Source of the DNA: Candidatus Thorarchaeota archaeon
GTDB taxonomy: Archaea > Asgardarchaeota > Thorarchaeia > Thorarchaeales > Thorarchaeaceae
Assembly: GCA_019057475.1 (NCBI GenBank)
Contig: DXJO01000026.1
Coordinates: 1 to 58,194 of the forward strand
Length of the DNA stretch: 58,194 nucleotides
Reading direction: 5' to 3'
The translations under genes and the position numbers were made by a program. The notes beneath the pieces were generated by a model that saw only the letters and a list, made by a program, of their open reading frames with translations, ran no database searches and had not been told where the DNA came from. Positions 1 to 58,194 of the stretch are shown here, piece by piece; position 1 is the stretch's first letter, and each line of letters starts with the position of its first letter.

Positions 1-154
1 GTTTTCTGTCTCCGTCCAACTGGCGGCGACCGAATTACGTGGAGGCCCTAGCAATCAGCATTGAACATCCACACCACTCAATCCTGAGCATATGTTATAA
101 CCACCTACAAAATGTCCAAGATTGTGCAAATTGTTGGCAGCTGTTGCATGCCCT
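1..154 (-). mobile_element. Left part of a non-autonomous IS607-like element (tnpB internal-deletion derivative), truncated by the window start
   Basis: Reverse complement aligns with 57927-58081 with 15 differences in 155 columns (hand count). On the minus strand it reads AGGG|CATGCAACAG, end motif TTGCACAA-N5-GACA, TATA-like TTATAA, ATGCTGATTGCTAGGGC, then GGTCGCCGCCAGTTGGACGGAGACAGAAAAC. Confidence 0.8.
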
Positions 155-9118: not shown

Positions 9119-9224
9119 CCGTTCATTGTAAGTTGTACAAAGTTGGACACCGAAGTCCAGTACGTCCAGAAAACGGCACTGGACTACTCCGTGAGGAACC
9201 TTCGCAGGTGTGTCATATTCCTCA
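9119..9224 (-). ncRNA. Putative structured RNA inside the mini-element
   Basis: TTTATAT box at 9253-9247, about 29 nt before hairpin 1 (TGAGGAA/TTCCTCA with inner CCT-GCGA-AGG). Hairpin 2 is AGTCCAGTGC/GTACTGGACT at 9185-9154. Confidence 0.55.
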
Positions 9225-9307
9225 GAGATCAATGTCGTATTGCTCCATATAAAGCCCACAATAGAATTGTCCACGTATGTCCAACTTTGCACCATCTGTT
9301 TACTACC
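9119..9307 (-). mobile_element. Complete 189-bp non-autonomous IS607-like element
   Basis: Bounded by GG at both ends (AGAG-GG-TAGTAAACAG ... AATGAAC-GG-TAGCAAT). Subterminal inverted repeat 9135-9150 / 9277-9292 (14 of 16). Right-end motif TGTC-N5-TTGTACAA is shared with the element at the window end. Removing it restores the fadD end AGA GGG TAG next to its terminator. Confidence 0.75.
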
Positions 9308-44500: not shown

Positions 44501-44671
44501 GATGGCGACATAAGCCCCCCCGATGCTCACTGTCCTCTCAATCAGATGAGCATGATGACCGCCGTCAGCGAGGGCGAGGGCGGCGCTGATTCCTGCCATT
44601 CCAGCACCGATTATGGCAACGTCAGTGGGCTTGGGCTTTGCCGCTGACTTCTTTGTTGCCTTGCTGACCAT
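41570..44671 (-). CDS. hdrA: Second large HdrA-like flavoprotein (two FAD modules, no MvhD)
   Basis: GAGMAG, YKIFPALECSAC, CVGSRD..CNRVCC, GVFICHCG, GGGVSG, CVGSR..YCSRACC, ferredoxin motifs. Confidence 0.88.
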   Translation of the reverse strand: MVSKATKKSAAKPKPTDVAIIGAGMAGISAALALADGGHHAHLIERTVSIGGAYVAIYKIFPALECSACVMTPLTSFVGKHLNITIHSLSEVKKVKGKAGDFTLTIHKKARYVDENKCTGCGLCIAACPVEVPNHYDMGLSLRKAIYMNFPQQIPLLAAIDRESCIGCGTCASVCPQDCIMYDDEDKEYDLNVGAIINAAGFEEYQPTDYAEYGYGVFPNVVTTLEYDRQTHPTGPTDAHMVRPSDGREPETIMFVNCVGSRDVRENIEGYSHHCNRVCCSFGLKLAQVTRMHYSKEHCKIIYTYMDMRTCGKLLEEFLWDSQHNQDIDFIRGRIAEINEDPDTHDLMVKLEDTEKGEIQEIKVNMVVLNSSFRPAEGSEELAKVLGIELDETGWVKEKNPNSGALETTRDGIYMAGCIHGPKDGTDTVNEGKGAAMAAQSILPLPHPPVPEAVPPLEVGEEPRVGVFICHCGGIIGNVIDSPGLAQWASHLPNVAYSIDYIFMCSDPGQEFITEAIKEHKLNRVVVGSCSPLQHEDTFRRALEAAGISGYYLVGPVGLREMIALVNANDPPDVRQEKAQDMIRSGVAKAINNEIVPVKSVDVTRVAMIVGGGVSGMSAALDIARKGFDVILVEKENKLGGRLNDLYNLFPKMESAQEIVDDLTARVEKEKRIKVLLNSKPVLREGSYGNYGITIQNTETGEQEVHTIGSMVITTGTDTYDPKKGEYGWEEVPGVITTLQLERMIRNGELKKPPKNPVFIHCVGSRQSPGEGNRYCSRACCSAVITMQHELKEMFPDIRVFSAYKEHIRPFANNMEEMWRENRQKGVSYLRWIREKPVTVEKAPDADEAIVTVYDTLSQETFKIRSNMVVLALGLEAPHDVNELTKALGINRGQDGFLLEVHMKFKPVETTVPGIFLGATYAKNVSDSINQARGAASAACAPLNLGTVNIELLTADVDEDLCVGCDLCHYSEICPYDAVSMVEVSPGVKKSVTNELACEGCGACCSICPTGARDLRWWREKSFYDQIEEMLRE

Positions 44672-44737
44672 GCTCTGCATTCTCCGGGTTGTGGCTACAG
44701 CGACGGCGGGAACTAGCGGGGTGATATAATCTTTCTG
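44604..44737 (-). repeat. hdrA promoter and 5' end (intact copy of a 134-bp direct repeat)
   Basis: Aligns without gaps to 46000-46133 with 19 mismatches (hand count). Confidence 0.92.
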
Positions 44738-45920: not shown

Positions 45921-45999
45921 CTAGTACTCCTCTTAAACAGAAAGCCAATGCATGTACTAGGGGAAGCTTTGCGAAAAGGTTTTCCATGGACTTCAACCC

Positions 46000-46133
46000 G
46001 CACCGATTATGGCAACGTCAGTAGGCTTGGACTTTGCCGATGACATCTTGGATGCCTTGCTGACCATGTTCTGTGTTCTCCAAACTATGGCTACAACGAC
46101 AGCGGGAACTAGCGGGGCGACACAATCTTTCTG
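46000..46133 (-). pseudogene. Decayed duplicate of the hdrA promoter and N-terminus
   Basis: Reads MVSKASKMSSAKSKPTDVAIIGAG*; the TATA box TTATAT is changed to TTGTGT. Confidence 0.9.
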
Positions 46134-57838: not shown

Positions 57839-57926
57839 GAAACTTCACACTCCTTTTCCTATCACGTCTTGTGTACTGTGTGCCCGTTGTACTGGGGTCT
57901 CTCTAGTATTGCAATCCCCTCAGAAA

Positions 57927-58194
57927 AGGGTATGCAACAGCTGCCAAGAACTTGTACAATTCTAGACATTTTGTAGGTGTTTATAACATACTGCTCAGGA
58001 TTGAGTGGTGTGGACGTTCAATGCTGATTGCTAGGGCGTGCATGAAATTTGGTCGCCGCCAGTTGGACGGAGACAGAAAACGCCTGTGGAGAGGACGTGA
58101 AACTAGTCGCAGATTCAGCAGGATCTGCAGAGCAGACCTCAATGAATCAGGAACCGAACATCAGTCATGGACATTGATGTCTAGGGTTGTACAA
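57927..58194 (+). mobile_element. Non-autonomous IS607-like element retaining the omega-RNA region, truncated just before its right tip
   Basis: AGGG|TATGCAACAG left end; TTGTACAATTCTAGACA (57952-57968) inverted against TGTCTAGGGTTGTACAA (58178-58194); TTTATAA box; MLIARA start fused to a TnpB-tail-like frame VAASWTETENACGEDV...SMNQEP. Confidence 0.8.
58051..58194 (+). ncRNA. Putative TnpB omega-RNA (right-end RNA) scaffold
   Basis: ACGCCTGTGGAG...GAATCAGGAA signature recalled from tnpB 3' ends. Hairpins GCAGATT/GATCTGC and AACC-ACATCA-GTC/GAC-TGATGT-GGTT. Confidence 0.6.

Follow-up and report, generated by a model that had tools for sequence, protein, structure and literature searches.

The DNA analysed here (the window, 58,194 nt) is the entire contig C6 of a 3.3-Mb Candidatus Thorarchaeota genome (G000), and its 3' end falls inside a protein-free derivative, about 280 nt long, of an IS607-type element that carries tnpB only (Table 1). 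The initial annotation had listed at this end a GG, a TTTATAA, the codons for MLIARA, a joint of about 13 nt and a frame leading into the TnpB tail, and the sequence confirms all of these at their places. The tail frame (VAASWTETEN...SMNQEP) starts at 58052 and the ATG at 58021 is out of frame with it. The YTTGKACA-like motifs of the left end recur as an inverted copy near the right end and also occur upstream of an IS607 tnpA. Transcription would start near 58005-58010, judging from the TATA-like box. A TATA-like motif lies 70-80 nt before the scaffold in most other mini-elements (minis), and in the alignment of copies conservation of the box was not measurably higher than that of the neighbouring bases. 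The initial annotation had proposed that the deletion places the promoter directly on the RNA scaffold; the predicted promoter lies about 71 nt upstream and a leader of about 40 nt remains.

Table 1. Parts of the mini-element and its second copy in the window
Feature	Position	Strand	Basis or remark
Target/TAM side AAGGG	57926-57930	+	Includes GG core dinucleotide (57929-57930); empty site in four relatives; NRGGG consensus
Left end with three YTTGKACA-like motifs about 10-11 bp apart (57951, 57961, 57970)	57931-57978	+	Alignment; putative TnpA sites
TATA-like box (TTTATAA, 57980-57986) of former tnpB promoter	57980-57987	+	Sequence; predicted only
First six tnpB codons, MLIARA (ATG CTG ATT GCT AGG GCG), ending at the deletion junction	58021-58038	+	Identical parent starts in C18, C7, C31 and C41
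13-nt remnant of parent A-C-N-L codons	58039-58051	+	Highly variable among copies; corresponding RNA part dispensable in ISFba1
Scaffold stem-loop 1	58052-58074	+	Register as PK2 of ISFba1; covariation
RAGATH-18-like omegaRNA core overlapping old tnpB tail	58083-58153	+	Sub-threshold match to Rfam RF03064; covariation
3' long hairpin and right end with inverted TnpA motifs	58154-58194	+	Truncated by the contig end; the tip would lie 14 nt further on (virtual position 58208)
Second copy of the ~280-nt mini (left end, junction, scaffold start)	1-152	-	Cut by the other contig end

The termini of the element had been read as the start and the extreme C-terminus of an IS607-type TnpB, and parents with exactly these termini were found in the same genome. 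The full-length parents are about 1.34 kb long with tnpB as their only gene (404 aa), begin with MLIARAF and have the tail of the window copy; their nearest tnpB relatives (91-92% identical) come from Ca. Thorarchaeota genomes of the same genus. The parent TnpB passed the NF040570 profile and scored best with NF038280 (IS607_TnpB), at 342.8 bits against a cut-off of 350. The RuvC acidic residues (D/E/D) and the zinc finger are intact, the tnpB ORFs are open in 7/7 cases over the compared region, and dN/dS is 0.21 at a dS of 0.22; by this sequence comparison the protein is under purifying selection. The mini differs from the parent by a clean deletion of about 1,060 bp at a 2-nt microhomology, with the 13 linking nucleotides taken from the parent's own tail, and the essential 5' end of the omegaRNA (58052) is spared by 13 nt. 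Intermediate forms of 328 and 351 nt are also present. The unit of about 280 nt has GG at both borders and unrelated flanks (BLAST and alignment); the junction occurs in at least 18 copies in G000 and in further copies in five sister species of the genus. tnpA, which is expected of an IS607 element, is absent from both the mini and its parent, and without this serine recombinase the mini is classed as a non-autonomous derivative. G005 has an intact tnpA whose left end is similar and which passes NF033518, whereas in the G000 assembly this tnpA is frameshifted; a second resolvase gene in G000 (contig C19) was not linked to the mini ends.

Several related elements were noted beside this family, here called family A. 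Family C minis (L093, L105, L122) are about 320 nt long and combine a different leader with the same scaffold. Near-identical copies occur in G000 and in G068, a different genus, which suggests recent activity and horizontal transfer; some family C copies are A/C chimeras. Decayed forms were also seen, one in G000 (C39:22001) running from left end to junction and then into unrelated sequence, and one in G014 (L157) that has lost the leader and stem-loop 1. The element at 9119-9307 (minus strand) of the window, which the initial annotation had used as an analogue, proved to be of another kind, family B (about 187 nt), of which the genome has at least 13 close copies. Family B shares only end motifs with the mini; the true second copy is the one at the opposite contig end (Table 1). 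Elements that carry long genes of TnpB type (710-745 aa) have a right end matching that of family B, which may therefore be the guide cassette of a second nuclease. Long TnpB-like frames (570-770 aa) with a TNB zinc finger lie at C42:187607, C9:22325, C18:47630, C54:173640, C42:35620 and C54:74875 in G000. An IS607-like composite of about 8.6 kb (L164, G000:C53:669-9291) holds a frameshifted tnpA and a 745-aa TnpB/Cas12f-like gene, with the same 11 nt after GG at both ends; its 1,822-aa ORF had no match in Pfam or NCBIfam. The window also contains a pair of 137-nt repeats (44601-44737 and 45997-46133), 85% identical and 1.4 kb apart.

The missing end of the window copy could be traced. In sibling copies the tip GTTTCGGGCAACGG ends exactly 14 nt beyond the window with the predicted GG, and the tip (CAACGG) and guide of the window copy itself lie on contig C13 (L165:2391-2453, minus strand), whose head consists of the element tip followed by the guide TGCCTAAAGTTGGTTTAATT, which matches the right side of the empty site. 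Four relatives show the empty site at this locus. Over its final ~30 nt the window departs from the C13 head at about 5/29 positions, so the window tail may be an assembly mosaic of copies. The end of C34 was also considered as the continuation (137/140 nt matching) and was rejected, as its flank is unlike the empty site whereas that of C13 fits. C34 and C53 have one guide in common, probably an assembly overlap. Of the relatives' 39 insertions, 20 have an empty counterpart in G000, and in 18 cases the join is exact with only one GG. Insertion thus occurs at GG without target-site duplication. The element also has a subterminal inverted repeat, which is imperfect and lies unequally far from the two ends, and short motifs spaced by 10-11 bp; all of this is the pattern of IS607 elements. 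The five bases left of 54 elements gave the consensus N-R-G-G-G, which resembles GAGGG and TGGG, two measured TAMs of IS607 TnpBs; GAGGG is one of RAGATH-18-type IS607 TnpBs (PMC11061315). The filled right end reads AACGG, which is not a TAM, and the element therefore does not target itself. As to whether guides match only empty sites or also viruses and host promoters, a question raised at the outset, chromosomal empty sites were matched, scanning of guides over G000 gave no second TAM-flanked target above 12/20 nt (weak matches only), and a viral scan with the guide of the window copy gave no match.

The suggestion that the tail overlaps an omegaRNA was strengthened by the layout of the scaffold, by covariation and by the selective constraint described below. 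In the ISFba1 reRNA the first 21 nt are dispensable, the working scaffold runs from G22, and bases two positions from the 3' terminus pair with a loop close to the 5' end (PMC11061315, PDB 8IAZ). With the numbering checked against the printed sequence, G22 maps to 58052, 13 nt past the junction. The mini shares with ISFba1 the order and register of a 5' stem-loop, core, 3' hairpin and terminal pseudoknot (PK2), in which CAAC, located two bases ahead of the tip, can pair with the GTTG loop (58062-58065); the PK2 letters are unlike those of ISFba1 on both sides while the register is the same. The TAM, purine-rich and near GAGGG, is shared as well, and the parent TnpB is homologous to that of ISFba1 (E 6e-55). 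In contrast to ISFba1, the mini has no protein gene in cis, and its scaffold overlaps the tnpB tail, stays below the Rfam cut-off and lacks the stem-loop SL2 of the SL2/PK1 pair; SL2 was absent between core and 3' hairpin in minis and full-length relatives alike, as it also appears to be in ISBce (PMC11061315 table). The core matched Rfam RF03064 (RAGATH-18) with 27.9 bits (E 0.0036; 27.2 bits in a full-length relative), under the gathering score of 44.9, and we therefore call the scaffold RAGATH-18-like only.

Over 19 Asgard scaffolds 94% of the alignment cells pair, and 16/43 pairs show two-sided change, above all shuffles and slid controls, a count that is inflated by the relatedness of the scaffolds; in the stem-loop 1 and PK2 helices 98% of cells are paired. 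A first, hand-drawn 3' hairpin fitted poorly and the alignment-derived hairpin was used instead. Folding of the scaffold only gave a z of -2.6, and that of the whole transcript was not significant (z -1.6). A covariance model search found the scaffold in 34/86 genomes of the family, and five scaffold-rich genomes all have tnpB. In G000 the core is kept in 23/23 genuine right ends with enough upstream sequence. Minis made up 10/24 sampled scaffolds in G023 and other more distant genomes, with several leaders and a full scaffold in all 10, and in G014 two further collapses join first tnpB codons to the tail.

The mini has no protein to encode, and the scaffold was nevertheless more conserved than the rest of the element. 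Diversity among 33 minis was 0.04-0.065 in stem-loop 1 and core, and 0.12-0.16 in the 5' half, compared to a neutral yardstick from tnpB near 0.22. Relative to the 5' half, private mutations were 2-3 times less frequent in the scaffold core, and private changes numbered 17 in 102 core sites as compared to 29 in the 64 sites just upstream (p=0.001, approximate, as copies are not fully independent). In the 20 nt on either side of the scaffold start the counts were 16 vs 3, and a control at mirrored positions gave 40 vs 18; the diversity step is sharp at the scaffold start and distance from the ends does not explain it. The G014 minis, with their unrelated leader, replicated the constraint (8/99 vs 38/160, p=0.003), and the signal in family C was marginal (p=0.055), both p-values being approximate for the same reason. 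Stem-breaking private changes were only halved, 15 vs 31 expected, and substitutions showed no codon-position bias (17/22/23). These sequence comparisons suggest that the copies keep their guide RNA better than their remaining sequence, as would be the case if each borrowed its cutter from full-length relatives and thereby defended its own insertion site.

The copies are near-equidistant. Those of one genome are as divergent (about 10%) as those of different species, which makes family A old. Any two family A copies in the same genome differ by at least 6.9%, and the cognate tnpA carries a frameshift in the G000 assembly; nothing thus points to mobility at present. One locus was found in three forms: G001 has the full element there, G004 a form of 351 nt and G000 the 283-nt mini, showing that forms also switch in place. 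The G000 and G004 copies there share three rare left-end alleles, and the G000 junction has mini-type alleles; this allele pattern indicates replacement in place by recombination. Long to short would be the simpler direction, short of proof. At a second locus a 328-nt form stands opposite the mini, with weaker allele support. The shared junction had been taken as a sign that the form has spread. One junction has indeed spread, by in-place switching as well as by insertion.

We propose that the mini is a non-autonomous, protein-free IS607 transposon acting as a standalone omegaRNA cassette, and that such standalone guides are probably used in trans by TnpB to recut vacated sites. A serine-recombinase TnpA, presumably encoded elsewhere, would insert the element at GG, the pattern that we observed, and excise it without a scar. 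The old tnpB promoter would transcribe the intact scaffold together with about 20 nt of right flank as guide, and TnpB from the few full-length copies could load this RNA in trans and cut TAM plus guide, a sequence present only at the vacated or empty allele. Repair from the filled copy would then restore the element, by analogy with IS607/IS605 experiments; cutting of empty alleles and repair from filled ones have been demonstrated for CboIStron (10.1101/2023.11.20.567912) and ISGst (PMC10055086). The short form replaces longer forms in place through recombination between copies, the switch itself being observed and its direction presumed. Under this mechanism copies with a damaged scaffold would lose protection, which would explain the measured constraint. 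The mini is mobilised, carries neither nuclease nor transposase in cis and has a compatible nuclease in its genome, as described for standalone omegaRNAs, and the constraint lends indirect support to expression of the mini RNA and its guiding of the nuclease in trans.

The main rival is homogenisation without function: the minis would be inert or merely mobile relics that carry the scaffold as it adjoins the right end, kept similar by gene conversion from constrained full-length copies. In-place switching and the A/C chimeras show that conversion occurs, and it could homogenise the scaffold without selection on each copy; tnpA is moreover broken in G000, the copies are old and the promoter is not visibly conserved. 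Yet full-length donors match the 5' 112 nt of the mini too and this part stays diverse, with the drop in diversity falling sharply at the scaffold start. None of the family C alleles at four diagnostic stem-loop 1 sites was found in family A. Different minis also share the boundary at which they stop, even though in IS1535 the last tens of bases suffice for TnpA (PMC6188088). We consider relics unlikely, though they deserve the most weight among the alternatives. It is a good deal less likely that the host has co-opted the elements, with guides aiming TnpB at promoters, RNA titrating TnpB or read-through driving neighbour genes. The window copy does lie between a divergent pair of genes and faces a transporter gene 92 nt beyond the tip, and scaffold constraint is compatible with any RNA function. 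Most sites, however, are filled in one species only, the scans of G000 and of viruses described above speak against further targets, and the catalytic residues of TnpB are kept.

A small peptide read from the old tnpB start could in principle be what is maintained, as in 17/30 copies, among them that of the window, 51-62 codons can be read from the ATG before a stop. A stop after 8 codons in 12/30 copies, the lack of third-position bias (17/22/23) and the unrelated leaders of other minis make this very improbable. The frame opens at consensus position 120 (window 58045), where the base of the 8-codon stop is changed to C, A or G in many copies. Equally improbable is an assembly artefact in which a collapsed repeat fused two halves of full-length elements: the element does sit at a contig end and its tail mismatches C13, but the junction is also present in the interior of long contigs, flanked on either side by unique sequence, and five other species have it too, confining the doubt to the tail of the window copy.

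By comparison with other systems, the mini is the IS607 counterpart, in Asgard archaea, of the known standalone omegaRNAs (PMC10691335) and the omegaRNA-bearing PATE-like elements of Geobacillus ISGst (PMC10055086). Like these, it is protein-free and mobilised, has kept both ends and the omegaRNA, and has a co-resident compatible nuclease that would act in trans. It differs from them in its IS607 chemistry (GG core and serine recombinase in place of Y1 and palindromic ends) and its archaeal host, and in that minis outnumber nuclease genes and that constraint on orphan scaffolds and in-place form switching have been measured here. Classification as a classical MITE or PATE was rejected, since there is no duplication, the repeats are subterminal and IS200/IS605 palindromic ends are lacking; in behaviour the mini is like a PATE. 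With IS607, IS1535, ISC1926 and CboIStron (PMC6188088; 10.1101/2023.11.20.567912) it shares GG crossover without target duplication, a subterminal inverted repeat with short repeated motifs and a scaffold ending in CGG; unlike these, mini and parent have no tnpA, and there is no intron. We found no prior report of IS607 minis in Thorarchaeota or Asgard archaea in the literature, of which our coverage was incomplete.

No new mechanism is indicated by these data. PMC10691335 calls the role of standalone omegaRNAs unknown, and in PMC10055086 the use in trans, by TnpB, of omegaRNAs encoded by PATEs appears as a proposal. Here the many old copies, the empty sites that match them, the neutral yardstick supplied by tnpB and the independent replicates provide sequence evidence that orphan scaffolds are maintained, and the natural deletion series marks a minimal scaffold of about 157 nt and an NRGGG TAM for a compact Asgard TnpB. 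More tentatively, and as a possibility to which we would not yet commit, Thorarchaeota may repeatedly have divided the work between a few tnpB genes and dozens of scattered guide cassettes, each transcribed separately, with the cassette form spreading partly by conversion of full-length elements, whose tnpB is thereby erased. If so, this would be a natural separation of guide and nuclease, a step proposed on the way from TnpB to Cas12, in which selection on orphan guides would be directly measurable.
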